Shown: piece by piece, positions 4,814-63,479 of the stretch
How positions within the stretch are numbered: the stretch's first letter is position 1
How the letters are laid out: each line of letters opens with the position of its first letter
Assembly (NCBI GenBank): GCA_964542025.1
Contig: CAZISY010000001.1
Location: 8,749-72,748 of the forward strand
Length of the DNA: 64,000 nt
Origin: an uncultured Verrucomicrobiota bacterium
GTDB lineage: Bacteria > Verrucomicrobiota > Kiritimatiellia > RZYC01
Direction of reading: 5' to 3'
Position numbers and translations under genes: made by a program
Notes under the pieces: model-generated
The model's database searches: none
The model's input: the letters and a program-made list of their open reading frames with translations, nothing else
Told to the model about the DNA's origin: nothing

Positions 4814-5812
4814 ATGAATACGGTATTGAATATCCGAATAATCAGGTGCGTGGCTCTATTCCTGTCCGTTTGTGCGGGGCCATCCGCCTTGGCGGAATTG
4901 GTGTTTAATATGACCACTATCGGCAATCCGGGCAATGTGCCGGATCATCCTTACCCGGACCCGGATGTGGTGGTAGGCGCAGTAGATTATGTTTATCAGA
5001 TCAGCAAGTATGAGGTGACGGTTGCGCAGTATGTGGAATTCCTGAATGCGAAGGCGGCCAGTGATCCGTATGGGTTGTACGACAGTCGAATGGCTGGTGC
5101 GCCTGGGATTATAGGTGGCGCGATTATCAACCGGGCCGGCGAAGACGGCACCTATACGTATACGGCTGTTTCCGGAAGAGAAAACCAGCCGGTGAGAATG
5201 TTAAATTTCTATGATGGCCTTCGCCTGGCGAACTGGTTGCACAATGGTCAGTGCGACGGGGATACGGAAGATGGAAGTTATACATTAAGCGGTGGTGTTT
5301 GGTTGACCCGTAATGAAGGGGCCTCCTGGGTGCTGGCTTCGCAGGACGAATGGCACAAGGCAGCCTACTACGACCCGGAAACGGGAAGCTACAATAAATA
5401 TCCCAACGGCAGGGACACGGTCGAATACCCCACCGATGAAACCACGCCCAGAGAGATGAATTTTGGATCCAGCCCCCAATGGCAGGGAAATGTATGTTTT
5501 ACCTCCATCGGCGAGACGACGGGGTATAGTGCGTATGGGGTATACGACATGGGGGGGAATGTCGAGGAATGGACGGATTCACTCAATCCTCCCGGTCAGG
5601 GGGCTAATCGAGCGGTTTACGGCGGAACCTACAGTACCGCAGACTCTTATTTGGCCCATGACGGCGATATTTCCCGCGATCCGGCGATTGATTCCGATGC
5701 GCGAGGTCTTCGTTTAGTTTATTTGATCCCGGAGCCGGGGACGGTCGGGTTGGGGGTGTTGGGGTTGGTTTCATGCTGGTTCTATCGTAAAAGAAAAACG
5801 GGGCAGCGGTGA
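4814..5812 (+). CDS. FGE-sulfatase domain PEP-CTERM protein, tandem paralogue of the previous gene
   Basis: Co-linear similarity to 3828..4811 (TIGNPGN, YVYQIS, NQPVRM, IPEPGTVGL). The ATG at 4814 follows the stop of the previous gene by 2 nt. Confidence 0.75.
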   Translation: MNTVLNIRIIRCVALFLSVCAGPSALAELVFNMTTIGNPGNVPDHPYPDPDVVVGAVDYVYQISKYEVTVAQYVEFLNAKAASDPYGLYDSRMAGAPGIIGGAIINRAGEDGTYTYTAVSGRENQPVRMLNFYDGLRLANWLHNGQCDGDTEDGSYTLSGGVWLTRNEGASWVLASQDEWHKAAYYDPETGSYNKYPNGRDTVEYPTDETTPREMNFGSSPQWQGNVCFTSIGETTGYSAYGVYDMGGNVEEWTDSLNPPGQGANRAVYGGTYSTADSYLAHDGDISRDPAIDSDARGLRLVYLIPEPGTVGLGVLGLVSCWFYRKRKTGQR

Positions 5813-6398
5813 TGAAAAGACGAATGTTGTCATTTTTCCAACCCATGATGGCACCGAAAGATATTCCGGCACCCCGTTTGGGGGGCATGGGGCACAGGGG
5901 AATCAGAACCCCAGGGTCTGCCGAACCTGGGCTATATGCCTGCACCCGCTCAGGGGTGTTGGCTCGTTTCTTCTCGGATCGGCTGCGGCATGTTGAACCC
6001 GCGAAAAAAGAAAATAGGGCTACGATGCACGCCTGCAAATTGAAATTATTAAAATATAGGACTGAGGCCAGCGGCCCTCCAGAGGGGTCATAATCTGTGA
6101 AAATCGGTGCAATCTGTGGACGACGTCCTTTGCGTTTTGCTGCTCCGTGTCTCCGTGCCCTCCAGCGCCAGCGGGTGGTGAAAAATACAATGGAGAGTTT
6201 GGCGCAGTGGAAATCTCGTTTTTCCGTCGGGAGTGAGATTTTAAGTTACTAATGAGTCCTTCATTCGTTGCTTTCTGATTCGTTGGAGGAGCGTGGTGGT
6301 CTTTGGTCATTGATTCTGCTGAGAAGAACATTCCGCATGTTTCGCGGCGACAGCCGGCAATCGAAATCCTTGTTGGACGAAAGAGGCTTTCTAAACGT

Positions 6399-6476
6399 TT
6401 TCCAATGGTTGGAAAATTCGTTCAAAAAGTTTCCAATGATTGGAAGTTTTCTCAACCCGTTTTCCAATGATTGGAA
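6399..6476. repeat. Three 15-bp palindromes TTCCAAT-G-(G/A)TTGGAA spaced about 31 bp apart
   Basis: Direct reading gives centres near 6406, 6438 and 6469. Two of the three are perfect palindromes. Confidence 0.8.
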
Positions 6477-6896
6477 GGGTAGTATCCAGGCAGTGTTCAG
6501 ATATTTTCGCGCATTCGTAATAAGGTCCTCCATTAACTTCACCGTTCCTGCTTGCCGGGCGGCGGCCTCTGTGTTCCGGCCGGCGAGAATGGGTATCCTT
6601 GCTTCGTTGCCTTTGCGCCCTTGAGCGAAGCGGGTGTGAATGTGATTCTGAACAGAGAAAACGAACCTTTTGAGTTACCTTTTTTGACAGGATCGAGAGC
6701 ATTTGGATTTTTGAACAGAAGGAAACGAAGGTAACGAAGAGGTAATCAAACCGGTTGCGACAGAGCGCAACCCTCCATCAATTCCTTTATTCGCGCCCAT
6801 TGGCGCTCAGTCGCGGTTAACACTCTCCGCATCTCAAATCTGTGCAATCCGCCTTCGTTCTGACGGAACTACGGCGCGACACGTCTGCGGAGAATT

Positions 6897-6942
6897 TCCA
6901 ATCGTTGGAAACTTTTCGGGCTGTTTTTCCAATCATTGGAAA
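6897..6942. repeat. Two 15-bp palindromes TTCCAATC(G/A)TTGGAA 31 bp apart
   Basis: Centres near 6904 and 6935. Same family as 6399..6476 and 53099..53236. Confidence 0.8.
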
Positions 6943-6955
6943 TCCGGGGGGCGTT

Positions 6956-7894
6956 TCACGGGCGATTCTTTTGCCAGGCGACCTGGGCGGCGAGTCCCTC
7001 GCGGACGGTGGTGGTGGGCGAGTAGTTGAGGAGTCGCCTGGCTTTTTCAATGTTTGCGGAGGTGTGTTTCTGGTCGCCGGGACGCATGGGGAACCGCTCG
7101 ATGATGGCCTGTTCGCCGATGAGTTCCTGGAGGAGGGCGACGACCTGATTCAGGGATACGGTTTCGCCGCCGCCCACGTTGAAGGTTTGGCCGATGGCTT
7201 TTTCGCGATGCTGCCAGGCGAGGAGGGTGGCTTGTACGCAGTCGGCCACGTAGGTGTTGCTGCGCGTCTGTTCGCCGTCGCCGTATTGTTTGAAGGGTGT
7301 GTGTTCCATCAGGGCGCGGATGAGGATGTTGTAGGCCATATCGGGGCGCTGGCGGGGACCGTAGACGGAAAAGTAGCGGAGGATGGTGATGGGGAGCCCG
7401 AAGTTGACTTCGTAGGCGCGGCAGAGGTTTTCGGCGGCGAGTTTGGTGATGCCGTAGGGGGAGAAGGGGGCGAGGGGGGAGTCTTCGGAGCCGGTGGCCT
7501 GTTTGCCGTATACGCTGGAGGTGGAGACATGAATGAGCTGGGGGATTTTGTGTTTGCGGGTGGTGTCGAGCATGCGCTGAGTGGCGATGAGATTGCAGGA
7601 GGAGTAGAGTTCAAGGTCGCTCCAGCTCAGCATGAGGCCGGCCATGGCGGCCAGGTGGAAAATGACGTCGCATCCTTCCGCGAGGTGATCGGGGACAGGG
7701 TTTCGCAGGTCGGCTTCATGGAAGGTGAAGCGGGGGTTTTTGAGTATTTCGGTGAGGTTGGTTTCTTTGATGGGGCGCGGATAATAGGGAATGAAGGCAT
7801 CCACCCCGACGACTTCGTGTCCGTGCGCGAGCAGGGTTTCCGTGAGGTGTGATCCGATAAATCCGGCGGCGCCTGTAACCAAACAACGACTCAT
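6956..7894 (-). CDS. NAD-dependent epimerase/dehydratase (UDP-sugar epimerase/decarboxylase family)
   Basis: GAAGFIGSHL Rossmann motif and YxxxK (YGITK) catalytic motif. Confidence 0.8.
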   Translation of the reverse strand: MSRCLVTGAAGFIGSHLTETLLAHGHEVVGVDAFIPYYPRPIKETNLTEILKNPRFTFHEADLRNPVPDHLAEGCDVIFHLAAMAGLMLSWSDLELYSSCNLIATQRMLDTTRKHKIPQLIHVSTSSVYGKQATGSEDSPLAPFSPYGITKLAAENLCRAYEVNFGLPITILRYFSVYGPRQRPDMAYNILIRALMEHTPFKQYGDGEQTRSNTYVADCVQATLLAWQHREKAIGQTFNVGGGETVSLNQVVALLQELIGEQAIIERFPMRPGDQKHTSANIEKARRLLNYSPTTTVREGLAAQVAWQKNRP

Positions 7895-48825: not shown

Positions 48826-49667
48826 TACAGGATCGTCGTCTTGGTCAGCGCCAGCATGGTCTTCCAGAGTTTGTCAGAATCTTTTTGTTCCAGAATTTTA
48901 TCACGGGCTTCCTTTTTCTGAAAAATCTGAGCCATGCCCGCGAGCAGTTTCAGGTAGAACGCGCTGGCGGCGGTGGGAATCACCACAAAGATCACGATGC
49001 GGGTCAACTTGGAGGCGTCGTTGTCGTATTTGAATCCGTTTTTGCTGGTGGCAACGGCGACGGTTAAACCGCCGCCTTCCACGCCGCGAACGTGCGGGAA
49101 GGCGAGGCCGTGGTCCAGCGCGGTGCTGACAATAGCTTCGCGTTTCAGAGCGGCTTCCGTCAGGGCGGCAGCATCATTGATGAAATTTTCTTTCTGCATA
49201 CGGGCGGCGAGTTCCGCAATGATTTCTTCTTTGGTCGTGGCCTCGCTGTGGGCGATCATGAGGTTCGGCGAGGAGAAACGGCTTAAGCCGGCCTGGACCT
49301 GTCCGGCGAATCGGTGCGTTTTCTGGGCGATGCGCGTCGGCAGTTCTTTGGAAGGGGCGTAGAGGATGCGGGCGCAGTTTGGGCAGACGTGCAGCTCCGT
49401 GGCGGCTTTGACGGCGTGTACGCGGCTGACCGGAAGGCCCATTCCGCACCCGGTGCATGTGCCGTTGGAAATGGGAACGATGGCGATGTGATGTTTGTTG
49501 TGCAGCTTGGTGAATTGGTCGCGGATTTCAGAGGGGAGGCTTTCGAGGTAGGTTTCGATGGATTTGTTCAGCTGTTCCAGGCGTCCGTTGGTTGATGTGG
49601 CGCTTTGCTGGGCCAGCGCCTCCATGAGTTCCTGTAACTGGATGAGCTGATTGATGATTCTTTTCAT
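48825..49667 (-). CDS. PtsN-like PTS EIIA type-2 (nitrogen-regulatory) domain protein with an N-terminal C4 zinc-ribbon/coiled-coil domain
   Basis: C-terminus has the GLAFPH(V) phospho-His motif in an EIIA-2 fold. N-terminus has CTGCG...CPNC. Overlaps the fusion gene start by 1 nt (TAATG). Confidence 0.6.
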
Positions 49668-51390: not shown

Positions 51391-52914
51391 TCAGTACGAC
51401 TTGGCGAAGATGACGCGGCGCTCGCTGGGTTTTCCGGTGAAGATGCAGGTGCCGGGTTCCTTCGGGCCATCCATCGGAATACAGCGGACGGTCACGTTGA
51501 GGTCGTCCTTAATTTGTTTTTCCACTTCGGCATCGCCGCACCAGTGGGCATAGGCAAAGCCGCCGTGGACCTCGGGTTTCTCCGCATTTTTCGGGGTGAA
51601 CCAGGCGTAAAATTCGTCACGACTGTTGATGATGCGGGAATTTTGCTCGCGGTTTTTGAGGGCGCGGTCAAAGAGGGTCTGCTGGATTTCCTGCAGCTGC
51701 GCGGAAATAGTGGCCACAAAGTCGGCGCGTTTTTGTCCGCTGCGGTCTTTGGCGTCGAGGGTGCGCTTGCCGACGAATACGGAATCCTGCTGCATGTCGC
51801 GCGGTCCGATTTCGACGCGTACGGGGACGCCTTTTTTGACCCACGACCACATTTTTTCGCCGCCGCGCAGATCGCGGGCGTCGATTTCGACGCGTACGGG
51901 GAGGCCGTCGTAAGTTTGTGCGCGCAGTTCATCGGCCACGCGGTTGCAGTAATCCATCACGGCCTGGCTGTCGCCGTCTTTGTGGATGACCGGCAGAATG
52001 ACCACCTGCGTGGGGGCCAGGCGCGGGGGCAGGACGAGACCGTTGTCGTCGCTGTGAGTCATGATGAGTCCGCCGATGAGTCGGGTGGAAACGCCCCACG
52101 ACGTGGTCCAGGCGAGGGTCAGTTCGCCCTGTTCGTTTTGGAATTTGATGTCGGAGGCTTTGGCAAATTTCTGGCCGAGGAAGTGCGAGGTGCCCGCCTG
52201 GAGGGCTTTGCAGTCCTGCATCATCGACTCAATGCTGAAGGTGTTTTCAGCGCCGGGGAAGCGCTCGCCGGGTGTTTTCTCGCCCTTAATGACGGGCATG
52301 GCCATGTAGTCTTCCGCGAAACGGGCGTAGACTTCCAGCATGCGCATGGTTTCTGCCATGGCGTCCTGCGCGGTGGCGTGAACGGTATGGCCTTCCTGCC
52401 AGAGAAATTCCGTAGTGCGCAGAAAGAGGCGCGTACGCATTTCCCAGCGGACGACGTTGGCCCACTGATTGATGAGCAGCGGCAGATCGCGATAGGACTG
52501 CACCCACTTGGCAAACATGGCGCCGATGATGGTTTCCGACGTCGGGCGGACGACCAGCGGTTCTTCCAGCGGAGAGGCCGGATGCAGTACGCCTTTTTCA
52601 TCGGCTTCGAGCCGGTGATGCGTGACCACGGCGCATTCTTTGGCGAAGCCTTCCACATGCTCGGCTTCCTTCTGCAGAAAACTCATCGGAATGAACAGCG
52701 GGAAGTAGGCGTTTTTGTGTCCGGTGGCCTTGAACATGCCGTCCAGGACGCGCTGGATATGTTCCCAGAGCGCGTACCCCCAGGGCTTGATCACCATACA
52801 GCCCCGCACGGGCGACGCTTCCGCGAGATCCGCCTCTTTAATGACCTGCTGATACCACTCCGGATAGTCTTCCAGACGCGTGGGGTTGATTGCCGTTTTT
52901 TCCTGCTTGGCCAT
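51391..52914 (-). CDS. proS: Prolyl-tRNA synthetase (class II, archaeal/eukaryote-like type with C-terminal Zn-binding domain)
   Basis: The start is taken at MAKQEKTAINPTRLEDYPEWYQQ. Class II motifs 1-3 and a C-terminal anticodon/Zn domain. The ORF track's N-terminal extension reads through the palindromic repeats and is spurious. Confidence 0.9.
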   Translation of the reverse strand: MAKQEKTAINPTRLEDYPEWYQQVIKEADLAEASPVRGCMVIKPWGYALWEHIQRVLDGMFKATGHKNAYFPLFIPMSFLQKEAEHVEGFAKECAVVTHHRLEADEKGVLHPASPLEEPLVVRPTSETIIGAMFAKWVQSYRDLPLLINQWANVVRWEMRTRLFLRTTEFLWQEGHTVHATAQDAMAETMRMLEVYARFAEDYMAMPVIKGEKTPGERFPGAENTFSIESMMQDCKALQAGTSHFLGQKFAKASDIKFQNEQGELTLAWTTSWGVSTRLIGGLIMTHSDDNGLVLPPRLAPTQVVILPVIHKDGDSQAVMDYCNRVADELRAQTYDGLPVRVEIDARDLRGGEKMWSWVKKGVPVRVEIGPRDMQQDSVFVGKRTLDAKDRSGQKRADFVATISAQLQEIQQTLFDRALKNREQNSRIINSRDEFYAWFTPKNAEKPEVHGGFAYAHWCGDAEVEKQIKDDLNVTVRCIPMDGPKEPGTCIFTGKPSERRVIFAKSY

Positions 52915-53098
52915 GAAAAACTCCTCGATTCGTTGGGTTGAAAACAGTGGTGCGTACCATAATTGAACGCATTCTGATTGCAAGCCTTCTTCAAGGGATT
53001 CGGCGCGGCCTCCGCGGGATTTACGCCGCATTTTTCCTGATGAACTTATTGCACTTGGAAAACGAATCCGTAGGATTCTGCAGCTGAACCCAGAAGTT

Positions 53099-53236
53099 TT
53101 CAACGATTGGAAAAACGGCATCGAAAAGTTCCAACGGTTGGAAAAACGCCGGCGGAAAGTTCCAACGGTTGGAAAAACAGCACAGGATTTTTCCAACGGT
53201 TGGAAAAACGGCATTTGAATTTTCCAATGATTGGAA
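53099..53236. repeat. Five phased 15-bp palindromes (TTCCAAC-G-GTTGGAA / TTCCAAT-G-ATTGGAA) with exactly 31 bp between centres, in the proS / efpL divergent promoter region
   Basis: Centres near 53105 (degenerate), 53136, 53167, 53198 and 53229. The last ends about 20 nt before the efpL GTG start. A possible half-site sits at 53056. Confidence 0.85.
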
Positions 53237-53256
53237 AAGGATGAGGAGAACGGATT

Positions 53257-53823
53257 GTGATTAAGGCATGCAATATTAAAAAAGGGGACATTGTGGATAT
53301 CGGCGGCACGCCGCATATTACGGAAAACGTGACGGTGCAGTCGCCCTCGGCCCGCGGGAGCGCCACGCTGTATAAGGTGCGTTTCCGGAATGTGCAGACG
53401 AAGCAGAAGGTGGATCAGACGCTGCGGGGGGATGATATCTTCAAGGATGCGGATTTTGAAACGCGCGAGGCGCAGTATCTGTATAAGAACGGCGATCAGT
53501 ATACGTTTATGGATTTGACGGACTATACGCAGTATGACCTGCCGGAAAGCGATGTGGAGGAGGCGACCCCGTTTCTGGTGGATGACATGGAGGGGATTTT
53601 GCTGCTGCTGTCTGACGGTCGCATTTTGGGAATTCAGATGCCGGACGTGGTGGAGCTGAAGATTACGGAGTGCGATCCTTCGATGCGCGGGGCGTCGGCG
53701 ACGTCGCGCACGAAGCCGGCGAAACTGCAGACGGGTTTGGTGGTGCAGGTTCCGGAATACATGTCCCCCGATGAAGTGGTGCGGGTGGATACGCGCACGA
53801 GTGATTTTTTATCCAGGGCGTGA
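53257..53823 (+). CDS. efpL: EF-P-like protein EfpL (YeiP family)
   Basis: The loop region QSPSARGSATLYKVRF is co-linear with YeiP (QSPTARGAATLYKMRF). GTG start with RBS GAGGAG. Confidence 0.8.
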   Translation: MIKACNIKKGDIVDIGGTPHITENVTVQSPSARGSATLYKVRFRNVQTKQKVDQTLRGDDIFKDADFETREAQYLYKNGDQYTFMDLTDYTQYDLPESDVEEATPFLVDDMEGILLLLSDGRILGIQMPDVVELKITECDPSMRGASATSRTKPAKLQTGLVVQVPEYMSPDEVVRVDTRTSDFLSRA

Positions 53824-55622
53824 GTATGGCTGCGGAAATACCCGTTCGAGGCGAGATGGATCCGGCGTATCAGTGGGATATTTCCCGGATTTACGCGACG
53901 TGCGATGACTGGGAACAGGATTTCGCGCGGATCGGCGAGCTGCTTGAACCGCTCGCGGCCATGAAGAAAACGCTGCACGATCCGGAGCGGCTGCTGTTGG
54001 CGCTGGAGCGGGAAGAGGAACTCTCGCGGCTGATGGACCGGTTGTATGTGTATGCGCATTTGCAGGAGGATCAGGACACCGGGAACGGGCAGAGCCAGAG
54101 CCGGATGGCCCGAGTCCGGGCACGCTTTACGGAAGTGCAGGGGCGGCTGGCGTGGATGACGCCGGAGATTCTTTCAAATCGGAAGAAGGATTTGCAGCAG
54201 TGGGTGAAGTCGGAGGCGTTCGCGGCGTTTCGTTATCCGCTGCAGAAACTGATCCGGCGCAAGGCGCATACGCTTTCGGAAAAGGAGGAGACGCTGCTTT
54301 CGAAGGCGTCGGATATTTTCGCGGCATCGGCCAGAACCTATACGTATCTGACGAATGCGGATCTGCGATTTCCGAAAATACGGGACGACCGGGGCGAAAT
54401 GAGTGAGATGTCGGATGGGCGGTATGTGCAGTTTTTGCTCAGCCGTGATCGCGGGGTGCGGCGGGAAGCCTTTTCGGCGATGTACGACACCTATGGATCG
54501 ATTAAGAATACGGTGGCGTCCACGCTTTCGAGTACGGTGAAGTATCACAATTACTGCGCGCGCATCCGGGAGTTTGGTTCGGCGGTGGAGGCGTCGCTCT
54601 TCAATGATCAGATTCCTGTGGCGCTTTACAGTACGCTGATTGAAACGGTTCGTCGGGAGCTTCCGCTCTATTTTCGCTATTTGGCGCTGCGGGCGCGTCG
54701 GCTGGGGTTGGAACGGCTGGATATGTACGATTTGTATGTTCCGTTGGTGTCGCGTGTGGACATGCAGGTGCCGTATGAGCAGGCGCGGGACTGGGTGCTG
54801 GCGGCCTGTGAACCGCTGGGCGATGCGTACAATGAGGTGCTGCGTACGGCGTTTTCGGACGGGTGGATCGATGTGTATGAAAACCGGGGAAAACGCTCCG
54901 GGGCCTATTCGAGCGGAAGCTATGAGACGCTGCCGTATGTGCTGATGAATTATCAGGGTACGCTGAATGATGTGTTTACGCTGGCCCATGAGCTGGGACA
55001 TTCCATGCACAGTCGGCTGGCGAATCAGGCGCAGCCTTCGCAAACGGCGGGCTATCCGATCTTCATCGCGGAAATCGCATCGACGCTGAATGAAGAACTG
55101 CTGCTCCGCTATTTGCTGAAGCAGGCCGCGGACCCCGTATTTCGGGCGTATCTGCTGAATCATTACTGCGACAGTTTCAAGGGAACGGTGTACCGGCAAA
55201 CGATGTTCGCGGAGTTTGAACGGATGATTCACGAGCTGGATGCCGACAGCCGCCCCCTGACACATGAAACGCTCTGCGGGGAGTATGGCAGGCTGAACCG
55301 CGACTTCTTCGGGCCGCAGATGGATGCCGATCCGCGCATTGCGCTGGAATGGGCGCGCATCCCGCATTTCTATTACAATTTCTATGTGTATAAATATGCG
55401 ACGAGCTTTTGCGCCTCGCAGATTTTCGCGGATCGCGTGCTGGAGTCGGCGGATGGTCGGGATCAGTATCTCCAATTGCTGCAGGCGGGCGGTTCGGATG
55501 ATCCGCTGGCATTGATTCGCCGGGCGGGGGTGGATTTAACGGACCGCGAGACCATGGAAGGAGCGTTTAACCGGTTTGGAAAGGTGTTGAGCGGGCTGGA
55601 GGCGGCGCTCGAAGGGACGTAG
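53820..55622 (+). CDS. pepF: Oligoendopeptidase F (M3B family)
   Basis: HELGHSMH zinc motif and M3 fold over 600 aa. The start overlaps the efpL stop. Confidence 0.85.
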   Translation: MSMAAEIPVRGEMDPAYQWDISRIYATCDDWEQDFARIGELLEPLAAMKKTLHDPERLLLALEREEELSRLMDRLYVYAHLQEDQDTGNGQSQSRMARVRARFTEVQGRLAWMTPEILSNRKKDLQQWVKSEAFAAFRYPLQKLIRRKAHTLSEKEETLLSKASDIFAASARTYTYLTNADLRFPKIRDDRGEMSEMSDGRYVQFLLSRDRGVRREAFSAMYDTYGSIKNTVASTLSSTVKYHNYCARIREFGSAVEASLFNDQIPVALYSTLIETVRRELPLYFRYLALRARRLGLERLDMYDLYVPLVSRVDMQVPYEQARDWVLAACEPLGDAYNEVLRTAFSDGWIDVYENRGKRSGAYSSGSYETLPYVLMNYQGTLNDVFTLAHELGHSMHSRLANQAQPSQTAGYPIFIAEIASTLNEELLLRYLLKQAADPVFRAYLLNHYCDSFKGTVYRQTMFAEFERMIHELDADSRPLTHETLCGEYGRLNRDFFGPQMDADPRIALEWARIPHFYYNFYVYKYATSFCASQIFADRVLESADGRDQYLQLLQAGGSDDPLALIRRAGVDLTDRETMEGAFNRFGKVLSGLEAALEGT

Positions 55623-55624
55623 GA

Positions 55625-55702
55625 TGGGGTGAGTGACGGGGTTCGAACCCGCGACCTAAAGAGCCACAATCTTTCGCTCTAACCAGCTGAGCTACACCCA
55701 CC
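55625..55702 (-). tRNA. tRNA-His (anticodon GTG) with encoded G-1 and CCA
   Basis: Folded by hand: acceptor GTGGGTG/CACTCAC with G-1 opposite discriminator C. D-arm GCTC-AGCTGGTTA-GAGC. Anticodon stem AAAGA/TCTTT with loop TTGTGGC. T-arm GCGGG-TTCGAAC-CCCGT. Confidence 0.9.
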
Positions 55703-55860
55703 GTCCTAATCCGGCAGAAAACGCAGGAAGATTAACGGTGATGCGGGAGAAATCAAAACAAAAGATAAAAAAAATGCCCGGTGGGGCATGAAAGTCGCTT
55801 GGCAAAGAATAACGGGCTGTGCATAGTACCCGCTTTCCAACAAAAAAGACGAGGTGAGTT

Positions 55861-56424
55861 ATGTATGATGTTTCTGAATTACGCAAGGGATTGAAAATTG
55901 AAATCGACGGCGCGCCGTATGAAATCACGGATTTCTCGTTTGCCAAGCCCGGCAAGGGCCAGGCCATTTACCGCTGTAAACTGCGGAATCTGCTGACCGG
56001 TTCCACGCAGGATAAGACGTATCGCTCCGGGGACAAGGTTGATCAGCCGGACCTGGCGCAGCGCGACCTGATCTATTCGTATCAGGAAGGCGAGCATTAT
56101 GTTTTTATGGAAAAAGAGACCTATGAGCAGGTCATTGTGGACGGCAGTGTTTTGAAAGATCAGCACTATTTCCTGATTGAGGATATGGAAGTCAAAGTGC
56201 TCTTTTTCAATGACGGCGCGATCGAAGTGACGCTACCCAACTTCATCGAAAAACGCGTGGCCGAAACCGAACCCGGGGCCCGCGGTGATACCGCCACCAA
56301 CGTGACGAAGACGGCCAAGCTGGATAACGGGTATGAAATCCAGGTGCCCATTTTCATCAATGAGGGCGACACCATCCGTGTGGATACGCGAACCGGAACC
56401 TACAACGGACGCATCAATGCCTGA
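55861..56424 (+). CDS. efp: Elongation factor P (Lys-type)
   Basis: KPGKGQA loop carrying the conserved Lys for beta-lysylation. Full three-domain EF-P. Confidence 0.9.
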   Translation: MYDVSELRKGLKIEIDGAPYEITDFSFAKPGKGQAIYRCKLRNLLTGSTQDKTYRSGDKVDQPDLAQRDLIYSYQEGEHYVFMEKETYEQVIVDGSVLKDQHYFLIEDMEVKVLFFNDGAIEVTLPNFIEKRVAETEPGARGDTATNVTKTAKLDNGYEIQVPIFINEGDTIRVDTRTGTYNGRINA

Positions 56425-57361
56425 TCAGAATGCCCGGGAGGTCCGCAGCGATTGTTCGCCGGCGTCCTATGCCGGAATCTTACAGGCCCGTCATCGTCTT
56501 CTCCAGGCGGTGCGGGCCTTTTTCTGTGCCCGCGACTATCTGGAAGTGGAAACGCCGATCCGTATTCCGCGTCCGGCGCTGGAGGATCACATTGACGCGG
56601 AGCCGGCCGGAAAATGGTATCTGCGGACGTCGCCGGAACTGCACATGAAGCGGTTGCTGGCGTCCGGCTATCCACGGCTGTTTCAACTGGGGCCGTGCTT
56701 TCGAAAAGGCGAACGGGGGGCGCGGCATAATCCGGAGTACAGCATGCTGGAGTGGTATCGAGCCGGCGTGGATTACCGGAGCATTTTGGAAGAAACGCGT
56801 GAGCTGCTCATTGGATCGGCCCAGGCGGTGATTGGTTCGAGCTGCCTGCCGGGGGCGTACGGCCCGATCGATATTGCCGGAGATTGGCTCATCCTTCCGG
56901 TACGCGAGGCGTTTTTGACGTATGCGGGATGGGATCCGGTGAAGGAACAGAATCCGCTGCGGTTCGATATGGATTTAATGGAACGCGTAGAACCGGCCCT
57001 GCCGAAGGATCGACCGACCGTGTTGATGGATTATCCGGCTTATCTGGGTGCGTTGGCGCGCCGGAAACCGGGTGCGGGGGAGCTGGCCGAGCGCTGGGAA
57101 TTGTATGTGGATGGTCTGGAATTGGCCAATGCGTATTCGGAGTTGATTGATCCTGTGGAACAGCGGATGCGGTTTGAGCAGTGCGCGGAAGGACGCGCAT
57201 CGCGCGGGCAGGACGTGTATGAGCCGGATGAGGCCTTTCTTGCAGCGCTTCCCGGGATGCCGGAGGCCGGGGGCATTGCCCTGGGGGTGGACCGTCTCTT
57301 GATGGTTCTTTGCGGGGTGCGCGATCTGGACCGGGTTCTGCCGTTTCGAAATGACACCTGA
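56417..57361 (+). CDS. epmA: EF-P (R)-beta-lysine ligase (PoxA/GenX)
   Basis: Truncated class-II LysRS-like catalytic core, co-linear with EpmA. Overlaps the efp stop by 8 nt. Confidence 0.85.
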   Translation: MPDQNAREVRSDCSPASYAGILQARHRLLQAVRAFFCARDYLEVETPIRIPRPALEDHIDAEPAGKWYLRTSPELHMKRLLASGYPRLFQLGPCFRKGERGARHNPEYSMLEWYRAGVDYRSILEETRELLIGSAQAVIGSSCLPGAYGPIDIAGDWLILPVREAFLTYAGWDPVKEQNPLRFDMDLMERVEPALPKDRPTVLMDYPAYLGALARRKPGAGELAERWELYVDGLELANAYSELIDPVEQRMRFEQCAEGRASRGQDVYEPDEAFLAALPGMPEAGGIALGVDRLLMVLCGVRDLDRVLPFRNDT

Positions 57362-62735: not shown

Positions 62736-63479
62736 TTGGATTTGAATGTGGAGAACGCAGTGCCGCATAAAACGTATACCATTGAGGAAATTGCAGGCTA
62801 TCTGCATCTGTCTGTACCGGATGTTGAGCGGTTGGTGCATGAACGGGATATTCCGTTTTCCTGGCAGGGGAAACGGTTGGTTTTTCGTCGGCGCGAAATC
62901 GATGGTTGGGCCAATCAGCGGATAATGCGCATGAGCACGGATAGTCTCCGCAACTTTCATAAAAAAACGACCAGTCACGTCCACGATTTATCCTTCAATC
63001 ATGCCATTATCACCGAATTGCTGAAGCCTGTCTGTATTGATCCGGCGATGAGCGCAAAAACCAAACCATCGCTGATTCATTCCATGGTGGCGTTGGCGGA
63101 GAAAAGCGAGTTTCTCAATTTATCGAATGAGTTAAAGGACAGCATTATCGCCCGAGAGCGGCTGGGATCGACGGCGATGTCCGGCGGATTTGCATTGCTG
63201 CATGCGGAGTATCATGATTCGTTCATGTTCGAGGATTCCTTTATCGCTTTGGGGCGCTGCGTTCATCCGATTGCCTTTTCCTCGCCGGACGGGCAGCTGA
63301 CCGATGTGTTTTTTCTTCTGTGTTGTCAGGATGAGCGGATACATCTGCATGTGCTTGCGCGTATGTGCATGCTTTGTCAGCAAACCAGTCTGTTGCTGGA
63401 GCTGCGTGACTGCACAACGGCGGAAGAGATGCGCCGCGTGGTGGCCGAAAAAGAAGCGGAACTCATTCGCATTGCCTGA
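62736..63479 (+). CDS. PtsN-like PTS EIIA type-2 domain protein with an N-terminal helix-turn-helix DNA-binding domain
   Basis: N-terminal YTIEEIAGYLHLSVPDVERLV (MerR/excisionase-like HTH). C-terminal EIIA-2 with GFALLHAE His motif. Start is TTG at 62736 or GTG at 62748. Confidence 0.6.
   Translation: MDLNVENAVPHKTYTIEEIAGYLHLSVPDVERLVHERDIPFSWQGKRLVFRRREIDGWANQRIMRMSTDSLRNFHKKTTSHVHDLSFNHAIITELLKPVCIDPAMSAKTKPSLIHSMVALAEKSEFLNLSNELKDSIIARERLGSTAMSGGFALLHAEYHDSFMFEDSFIALGRCVHPIAFSSPDGQLTDVFFLLCCQDERIHLHVLARMCMLCQQTSLLLELRDCTTAEEMRRVVAEKEAELIRIA

Follow-up and report, generated by a model that had tools for sequence, protein, structure and literature searches.

The sequences described here are related by kind to dispersed palindromic repeats and to phased operator arrays, both of which are known. 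REPs are imperfect palindromes of 20–40 nt, found in alternating orientation with defined linkers, associated with RAYT transposases and transcribed into hairpins, and BIMEs are bound by the host proteins IHF and gyrase. Rickettsia palindromic elements span ~100–150 bp, have a conserved body and are tolerated in frame within protein-coding genes. DUS/USS and the cyanobacterial HIP1 are short, exact, lineage-wide motifs that are over-represented in and between genes and that may be maintained by drive. NrdR boxes (reportedly described by Rodionov and Gelfand in 2005) are tandem palindromes of ~16 bp whose centres lie 31–32 bp, or three turns, apart.

Kiritimatiellae are abundant degraders of polysaccharides in rumen, gut, sediment and hypersaline systems, and to our knowledge almost nothing has been reported on their gene regulation and chromosome organisation. 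Arrays of the Lrp/AsnC family are clusters of boxes with centres two or three turns apart, each box bound by one dimer and all dimers on the same face; binding is cooperative and wraps ~100 bp of DNA, and the Ss-LrpB box of Sulfolobus solfataricus, TTGCAA-AAT-TTGCAA, is 15 bp long in a 6-3-6 format (PMC1802622, PMC2715240, PMC2995911). Here, we describe an array of 15-bp palindromes from an uncultured member of the Kiritimatiellae and the family of arrays to which it belongs.

Phased palindromes between proS and efpL

The 341-bp spacer between proS and efpL, which an earlier note on this DNA had read as a divergent promoter carrying a cooperative operator array or a nucleoprotein-forming element, contains five 15-bp palindromes of the form TTCCAA-YSR-TTGGAA. 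Their starts lie at 53098, 53129, 53160, 53191 and 53222, giving start-to-start distances of 31, 31, 31 and 31 bp. The description of five palindromes exactly 31 bp apart ahead of efpL was borne out by direct reading, by a pattern search and by Tandem Repeats Finder, which called a period of 31 with 4.5 copies (53101–53238); a separate repeat search gave an identical register. The copy types that the note had distinguished (three copies, one copy and one degenerate copy) were also recovered. Sites 2 (53129–53143), 3 (53160–53174) and 4 (53191–53205) all read TTCCAACGGTTGGAA, with the rare symmetric C..G centre, site 5 (53222–53236) reads TTCCAATGATTGGAA, and the degenerate copy, site 1 (53098–53112), reads TTTCAACGATTGGAA, which has one mismatch against TTCCAAYSRTTGGAA and is perfect (TTCCAACGATTGGAA) in the strain variant L114. 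The entire array occupies 53094–53240 and consists of five 31-bp units, each made of the core, a T-rich 5′ and an A-rich 3′ flank and a free mid-spacer; neither sites nor arrays are assigned to a strand. Spacers 1 and 4 have ACGGCAT in common and three sites share a CGG centre, evidence of recent tandem duplication; half of the symmetric C..G centres of the family data set described below come from these three sites.

In the window, by which we mean the whole 64-kb stretch of DNA that was analysed, the motif matched 10 times with up to two mismatches, against 0.89 matches expected, and none of 100 shuffles reached 10. All 10 matches fall into three arrays phased at 31 bp. Besides the array at proS/efpL, these are an array in a gene-free gap with three perfect sites spaced at 31 bp (6400–6476, starts 6400, 6431 and 6462) and an array of two perfect sites at the same spacing (6896–6941, starts 6896 and 6927), which lies 17 bp past the 3′ end of a gene on the minus strand (6959–7882). 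The other five matches thus lie where the earlier note had placed them, in the gap at 5813–6955 and nowhere else in the window.

The gene efpL (53243–53823, plus strand, including its RBS) has the RBS GAGGAG at 53243–53248 and a GTG start at 53257, and encodes 188 aa. Its product is 86% identical to EfpL of the MAG CAZBEO01, and NCBI names its close homologues EfpL/YeiP. Site 5, the last, ends at 53236, 20 nt before the GTG, in agreement with the ~20 bp claimed earlier, and 6 nt 5′ of the RBS, so the array overlaps efpL promoter or 5′UTR DNA. On the other side, proS (51391–52914, minus strand) encodes 507 aa from a real start at ATG 52914, on which external gene calls and our own agree. Genes were called with a self-trained dicodon model, and its calls for the window match the external ones; GC3-based calling, which did not separate shadow frames, was dropped. 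A longer proS ORF (51391–53316, 641 aa) reads the array as FSNHWK/FPTVG, and the coding potential of its extension is negative, confirming the earlier suspicion that this N-terminus is spurious and is the array in translation.

A candidate proS promoter (52956–52983, minus strand) has the −35 element TTGCAA at 52978–52983, a 16-nt spacer and the −10 element TATGGT at 52956–52961. It is kept in the alignment with L118, the locus with the 86% identical EfpL, and scores below the threshold of the promoter scan. If TTGCAA-16-TATGGT does serve proS, the promoter would lie ~115 bp from the nearest array site. The promoter scan of the locus found no sigma-70-like promoter for efpL, and a scan of the same locus found no terminator-like site.

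Anatomy, spread and evolution of the array family

A scan for paired sites at 31-bp spacing covered 185,579 species, with one genome each. The matches listed comprise at least 110 stretches from at least 31 genomes, and their labels are Kiritimatiellae, Kiritimatiellia, Kiritimatiellales, Pontiella and Tichowtungia; the rest of the matches listed carry older labels (Verrucomicrobia, Lentisphaerae, Spartobacteria; PVC) or just ‘uncultured bacterium’. The sole exception among them is a 5-kb ‘Bacteroidales’ contig, which is probably mis-binned, as the protein flanking its array is 50% identical to a Kiritimatiellae protein. A search of 2.9 million viral contigs gave only 3 stretches on 2 contigs. 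A profile of the translated arrays was run against 5.8 billion proteins and matched 35 tiny ORFs, the named ones all from Kiritimatiellae; this search is informative on taxonomy and not on copy counts. Arrays thus create small ORFs annotated as ‘hypothetical proteins’ (these 35) and spurious N-terminal extensions (proS here), and many arrays lie at contig ends. The 20 kb sampled of the Kiritimatiellae genome L117 (JAQUPZ01) had no site, and Pontiella sulfatireligans had single sites only, one of them directly after a sigma-70-like promoter, indicating that the system is not universal in the class. Where present, arrays occur at a density of ~1 per 20–40 kb (3 in the 64-kb window), and each genome probably holds arrays or sites in the hundreds. 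Literature searches with the motif sequence and for palindromes in Kiritimatiellae found no description of the motif or of such arrays, and this class-wide repeat family is apparently previously undescribed.

The listed scan loci and the window form a data set of 128 arrays with 2–7 sites each. Across the family, the 12 outer core positions are near-invariant. Position 7 carries T in 74% of sites and C otherwise, position 9 carries A in 82% and G otherwise, and the centre holds C or G in 441 of the 441 sites tallied, under a search pattern that permitted any base. T-rich sequence flanks the core on its 5′ side and A-rich sequence on its 3′ side, T never directly follows the core, and the middle 8–10 nt of the spacers have an information content near zero. 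Symmetric C..G centres are depleted (6 observed versus 22.7 expected) and asymmetric ones over-represented. Half-sites at the ends of arrays are no more degraded than those within, and single sites are almost absent from array-bearing genomes.

Among sites with at most one mismatch, the spacings were 31 bp (244 cases), 22 bp (45), 30 bp (34), 32 bp (10) and 20–21 bp (7), with rarer spacings of 42–43 bp (3), 52 bp (2) and 29 bp (2). The scan imposed a spacing of 31 only, and the 103 other spacings were not imposed; 101 of these 103 lie within ~1.5 bp of a multiple of 10.5, equivalent to 2, 3, 4 or 5 turns of B-DNA, where a uniform spread over 16–70 bp would give ~19. Rumen MAGs show ordered patterns of 22, 30, 22, 30 and 31 bp, and other genomes use 31 bp nearly throughout. 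Genomes have dialects in the centre triplet (CGA versus TCA), the +1 base (C or G) and the use of the 22-bp spacing, as expected if sites co-evolve with a binder. Within non-rumen genomes, flanking 8-mers were shared by at most 2–3 of 20–22 flanks. When folded as RNA, each unit can form a hairpin of 8–9 bp with a 3-nt loop and two G–C pairs at ~−6 kcal/mol, and the array has a z of −4.6. Searching the whole window against Rfam at the gathering threshold gave tRNA-His only, with no match to the array, and searching the gap at 5600–7100 at E ≤ 1 gave chance-level matches only.

The array and its neighbours can be followed between the window and L118, where the synteny of proS and efpL is kept. 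The five units align in register, the L118 array has one extra degenerate unit, and the last site lies at the same distance from the RBS. Of the fixed core positions, 59/60 are identical between the two arrays, compared with 8/15 positions of the central triplets, 18/30 of the A/T flanks and 19/50 of the mid-spacers; at this orthologous locus core and spacers evolve differently, and the core is under selection. Further afield, an array 5′ of pheS differs in size between orthologous loci (3 versus 6 sites; proteins 83% identical), and an array 5′ of yggS is retained at the same position at 54% protein identity. Orthologues of efpL at 71%, 66% and 62% identity have no array upstream; in one of these loci three sites form an array after pepF, and another has no site in 20 kb.

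Arrays occupy every kind of intergenic spacer. They lie in tandem, divergent and convergent spacers at 59:17:14, compared with 478:89:90 for all spacers of the same loci, and 3′–3′ spacers are not depleted of them. At five loci (L071, L073, L085, L086 and L100), two long, high-scoring genes converge and the array fills the short gap between their stop codons. A test of whether arrays stand in for intrinsic terminators is confounded, as the arrays themselves score as a hairpin with a T-run. Of the adjacent gene starts on the array-facing side, about 30% are no more than 31 bp away from the array, efpL among them, and promoter or 5′UTR DNA must then overlap it. The 108 genes that have their 5′ end towards an array, including pheS, ruvB, gyrA, dnaE (PHP domain), trpS, metG, glycogen synthase and transporters, match 126 Pfam families, none more than twice, and clustering of 238 flanking proteins found no recurrent flanking family. 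The regulon that the earlier note had hoped to derive from a genome-wide motif search did not emerge from these genes, which have no functional coherence. Nor does the motif mark the proS/efpL promoter in particular: it is dispersed over all spacer types near background proportions and also occurs in genes. High-copy, promoter-independent dispersal, which that note had set against a promoter-specific array, is largely what we found, and the MITE-like nature it had mentioned alongside was not borne out.

Some arrays lie in frame within genes. A sugar-phosphate nucleotidyltransferase (NTP-transferase) from three genomes, with 53–55% identity between the proteins, has an in-frame array in the same place each time, of 3, 3 and 6 sites. 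In an alignment with human GMPPB, FQSLE from the first site falls on the native motif FQAMV (FQxxV), and the remainder is a 12-residue insertion. A PfkB kinase has two in-frame sites with its Pfam alignment unbroken, and MBOAT and GH127 proteins also contain in-frame arrays. As 31 is not divisible by 3, successive sites within a gene read FQxLE, FPxIGK and SNxWK. An open-frame test for arrays inside ORFs carried no information: the motif lacks stop codons in most frames, open frames are long in genomes as rich in G+C as these (56% in the window), and the window array itself was scored as ‘inside’. The conservation of the core is deep: it extends to at least 31 genomes among the matches listed and is retained at 53–55% protein identity.

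A proposed phased docking platform and its alternatives

On balance, we lean towards the reading that the arrays are phased multi-dimer binding platforms, with Lrp-like geometry, for a conserved DNA-binding protein, the putative binder. The helical spacings, the selection on the full palindrome and the lack of pairing covariation together argue for recognition of the duplex by interacting dimers on one face. Each 15-bp site, TTCCAA-Y-S-R-TTGGAA, usually with its T-rich 5′ and A-rich 3′ flanks, would bind one dimer; neighbouring sites 2, 3, 4 or 5 turns apart would set all dimers on one face of the duplex, and interactions between dimers would produce a bent or wrapped higher-order complex of ~60–220 bp. 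We would expect the binder to be abundant and global, a protein of the nucleoid-associated or global-regulator type and not a dedicated regulator, given the density of arrays and their presence in every kind of intergenic spacer and occasionally in genes. At the locus studied here, an occupied array should occlude or roadblock transcription of efpL, and it would sit ~115–250 bp upstream of the candidate proS promoter. Against a platform of this kind, a tblastn search with E. coli Lrp at E ≤ 1 found no match in the window and 118 loci (~0.9 Mb). Clustering and a Pfam tally of neighbouring genes found no DNA-binding family recurring beside arrays, and tblastn searches with the window’s HTH_17-EIIA and Zn-ribbon-EIIA proteins found no recurrent DNA-binding neighbour.

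The earlier note’s more specific proposal, in which one regulator would control efpL, proS and a small regulon through a dedicated cooperative operator array, is largely refuted already and we now consider it very improbable. Phased palindromes do lie in the divergent spacer and abut the efpL RBS, and the array is kept at this locus in the 86%-related genome, but efpL orthologues at 62–71% identity have no array 5′ of the gene, the array-adjacent genes are functionally incoherent, and arrays also lie at 3′ ends and inside genes. What stands is the broader half of that proposal, a cooperative array or nucleoprotein element: palindromic, helically phased sites fit dimers on one face across all 128 arrays, and it is the operator specific to proS and efpL that falls away. 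A different origin, which we regard as unlikely, is a selfish, self-propagating repeat family, comparable to REP/BIME sequences, to Rickettsia palindromic elements or to the molecular drive of uptake sequences, which would start from chance near-matches, grow by tandem duplication of 31-bp units and be kept uniform by copying or conversion, with no host function for any one array. Dispersal over all intergenic classes in background proportions would follow from such a family, as would the filling of 3′–3′ spacers, the in-frame arrays in the NTP-transferase (with its first site over the native FQxxV), PfkB, MBOAT and GH127 genes, the genome-specific dialects, the many arrays at contig ends and the duplication signatures of the window array. 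Copy number also varies at orthologous loci (3 versus 6 at 83% identity; 3, 3 and 6 in the NTP-transferase gene). However, REP-type sequences are species-specific, and here the same 12 core bases are fixed in at least 31 genomes, including Kiritimatiellales, Pontiella and Tichowtungia. The arrays of one genome have no flanks in common, and neither terminal repeats nor a conserved element body are present. Slippage alone would generate a single unit length and not a set of 20–22, 30–32, 42–43 and 52 bp in helical register, perfect sites in a coding region at 53–55% protein identity need active maintenance, and arrays are almost absent from the 2.9 million viral contigs.

The arrays might instead act as RNA, with runs of hairpins in 5′ and 3′ UTRs modulating mRNA stability, translation or termination, for instance as weak bidirectional terminators. 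Each unit can form its 8–9-bp hairpin with a 3-nt loop, the folding z of −4.6 and the T-rich runs after many units fit this role, arrays are the sole structured element in several convergent spacers, and, should the promoter sit upstream of it, the efpL array has to be transcribed. We nevertheless find an RNA-level role quite improbable: the hairpins are weak, at ~−6 kcal/mol with two G–C pairs, the proS/efpL locus has no terminator-like site, the array has no Rfam family match, and the variable stem-closing positions show no covariation, with C..G even depleted. In addition, phasing by helical turns is meaningless for RNA, and the element is identical on both strands and present in divergent promoters. 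The same 31-bp spacing could be produced by stacked promoters, in which the right half-site TTGGAA would serve as a −35 element and the next left half-site, TCCAAT, 17 bp downstream, as a −10 element, on both strands. A spacing of 31 bp leaves exactly 17 bp from TTGGAA to TCCAAY, local sigma-70-like promoters have TTGnnA −35 elements (TTGGCA-17-CATAGT before efp and TTGCAA-16-TATGGT before proS), and ~30% of array-facing adjacent starts are within 31 bp. This arrangement is nonetheless hardly credible, as TCCAAY lacks the A at −10 position 2 and the scan gives no efpL promoter, a 22-bp spacing leaves an 8-bp spacer, outer half-sites that a promoter would not need are fully conserved, and arrays also lie between convergent genes and inside genes.

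Near-perfect sites in the hundreds, arrays in 3′–3′ spacers and in-frame arrays are unusual for transcription-factor sites, which weighs against the platform, and the same features are also expected of a self-propagating repeat. Three further candidates were considered and rejected. The arrays have no terminal inverted repeats, target-site duplication or conserved body of a MITE, their flanking 8-mers are rarely shared and their spacers are unrelated; with a 15-nt repeat, a 16-nt spacer and 3 arrays in 64 kb, they do not have the sizes or locus numbers of CRISPR; and they show neither the G+C-rich stem with a U run nor the pairing covariation of an intrinsic terminator or structured RNA. We know of no match to the sigma-54, ECF, IHF, Fis, CRP or LacI consensus sequences, by informal comparison.

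The platform reading has a bolder form, which we put forward tentatively and consider somewhat unlikely: Kiritimatiellae may have an undescribed chromatin-like system in which phased dimers of a lineage-specific protein would assemble on arrays of exact sites, 60–220 bp long and present in the hundreds, and would wrap the DNA, forming boundary elements across the genome that would act as promoter occluders at 5′ ends and as roadblock terminators or insulators at 3′ ends and in convergent spacers, and that would be actively maintained even in coding sequence. In either form, the exact, class-wide palindrome offers a direct experimental handle, since the binder should be recoverable by pull-down with a 62-bp probe. 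For a binder that is a global regulator or a nucleoid protein, the arrays would give the full target set for each genome or metagenome bin from sequence alone. If the arrays are self-propagating instead, they would represent a new type of bacterial repeat, with sequence stasis at the level of a class and in-frame colonisation of enzymes.

Comparison with known systems

The arrays resemble CRISPR in their repeat-spacer layout, with invariant palindromic repeats and unrelated spacers, but their repeats are 15–19 nt and their spacers ~12–16 nt, compared with ~23 nt or more and ~26 nt or more in CRISPR. CRISPR also occupies one or a few loci per genome, whereas the arrays here are many and small, and some lie in genes. 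DUS/USS and HIP1 differ in being single short motifs that are not known to form phased arrays. Rickettsia palindromic elements share the in-frame insertion of palindromes, but are not built as 15-bp sites in arrays with free spacers. With the REP/BIME sequences of enterobacteria and pseudomonads, the arrays have in common that they are high-copy, intergenic and palindromic and also occur between convergent genes. They differ in that the core is a perfect 15-bp palindrome and the spacers hold no information (mid-spacer identity of 19/50), whereas REP arrays are not known to combine helical phasing with free spacers. NrdR boxes come closer in spacing, being palindromic tandem boxes three turns apart like the Kiritimatiellae arrays, although they occur as two boxes only, have another sequence and are known only from ribonucleotide reductase promoters.

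The closest known geometry is that of the Lrp/AsnC family, a likeness of layout rather than an assignment of the putative binder to that family. Lrp centres consist of A/T only, whereas the central base here is always C or G, and Lrp boxes are degenerate and lie in particular control regions, whereas Kiritimatiellae sites are near-perfect and also lie at 3′ ends and within genes. Both are palindromes built as half-site, 3 bp and half-site (TTCCAA-YSR-TTGGAA versus abcdeWWWedcba), and both occur in clusters at spacings of two or three turns, with 20–22 and 30–32 bp dominating in the arrays described here.

The proS/efpL spacer and the EF-P cluster

The 341-bp spacer between proS (minus strand) and efpL (plus strand) contains palindromic and half-palindromic sequence beyond the five sites of the main array. 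Upstream of site 1 (53098-53112), at a centre-to-centre distance of 34 bp, is a perfect 6-3-6 palindrome of different sequence, GAATCC-GTA-GGATTC (53064-53078). Comparison with L118, a locus of the same proS/efpL synteny from another genome, revealed no conservation of this palindrome, and a single such palindrome in a spacer of this length comes close to what chance would give. At 53055-53060 we found TTGGAA(AA), a right half-site lacking its partner. Because a full site here would have its centre 52 bp, or five helical turns, from site 1, this orphan half-site may be a decayed sixth site of the main array. About 80 nt upstream of proS (52915-52995) are well conserved relative to L118, whereas the remaining spacer is not; this stretch includes a candidate proS promoter, TTGCAA-16-TATGGT, and a short leader.

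On the other side of the spacer, efpL (53257-53823) belongs to an EF-P cluster (53257-57358) that also comprises an M3 oligoendopeptidase gene with Peptidase_M3 domains (53820-55622), tRNA-His on the minus strand (55625-55701) and efp (55861-56424). Its remaining gene (56417-57358), probably epmA, is class II tRNA-synthetase-like and truncated. Within the cluster, only efpL has an array.

The gap with the sister arrays and candidate regulators

Both sister arrays (6400-6476 and 6896-6941) lie inside a 1.15-kb gap separating convergent genes (5810-6958). Coding potential was negative in all six frames of this gap and an Rfam search returned no match; the gap may encode an unannotated RNA or be no more than array-rich spacer.

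The window also encodes two fusions that carry a PTS EIIA(Ntr) domain, HTH_17+EIIA (62736-63476) and Zn-ribbon+EIIA (48828-49667). Both were weighed as candidate global regulators; no homologue adjoined an array in the other loci.

Array contexts in other genomes

Nine instances of a conserved box, GCNAGCRGATTGTGC, occur in four genomes, 26-27 bp (16 bp in L029) past that end of an array at which the sites are spaced by 22 bp. The loci concerned (L024, L029, L040, L048, L079, L081, L094 and L109) are all from rumen-lineage MAGs, and their arrays mostly have successive spacings of 22, 30 and 31 bp, with longer variants in L040 and L094. L024 carries two such modules facing each other, 2.9 kb apart. 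In L015 (MAG MHBK01), 2-site arrays at 976-1021 and 2488-2533, 1.5 kb apart, share a near-identical upstream flank of ~40 nt that includes the hairpin TTTTGTCGGATATGCCGACAGGGG; this looks like a module that was duplicated locally.

Other arrays abut or enter genes. A 4-site array (L046:5037-5200) immediately adjoins the 3' end of a minus-strand tRNA gene, and orthologous sugar-phosphate nucleotidyltransferase genes carry in-frame arrays at one shared position (L034:609-778, six sites; L077:3552-3629 and L107:3503-3579, three each), the first site overlying a native FQxxV motif that human GMPPB also has.

Sites in Pontiella sulfatireligans are single rather than arrayed, some within genes. Within L115:8209-8262, one lone perfect site, TTCCAACCATTGGAA, lies 8 nt ahead of a start codon and immediately downstream of a sigma-70-like TTGACC-18-TACTGT, a placement classical for an operator.
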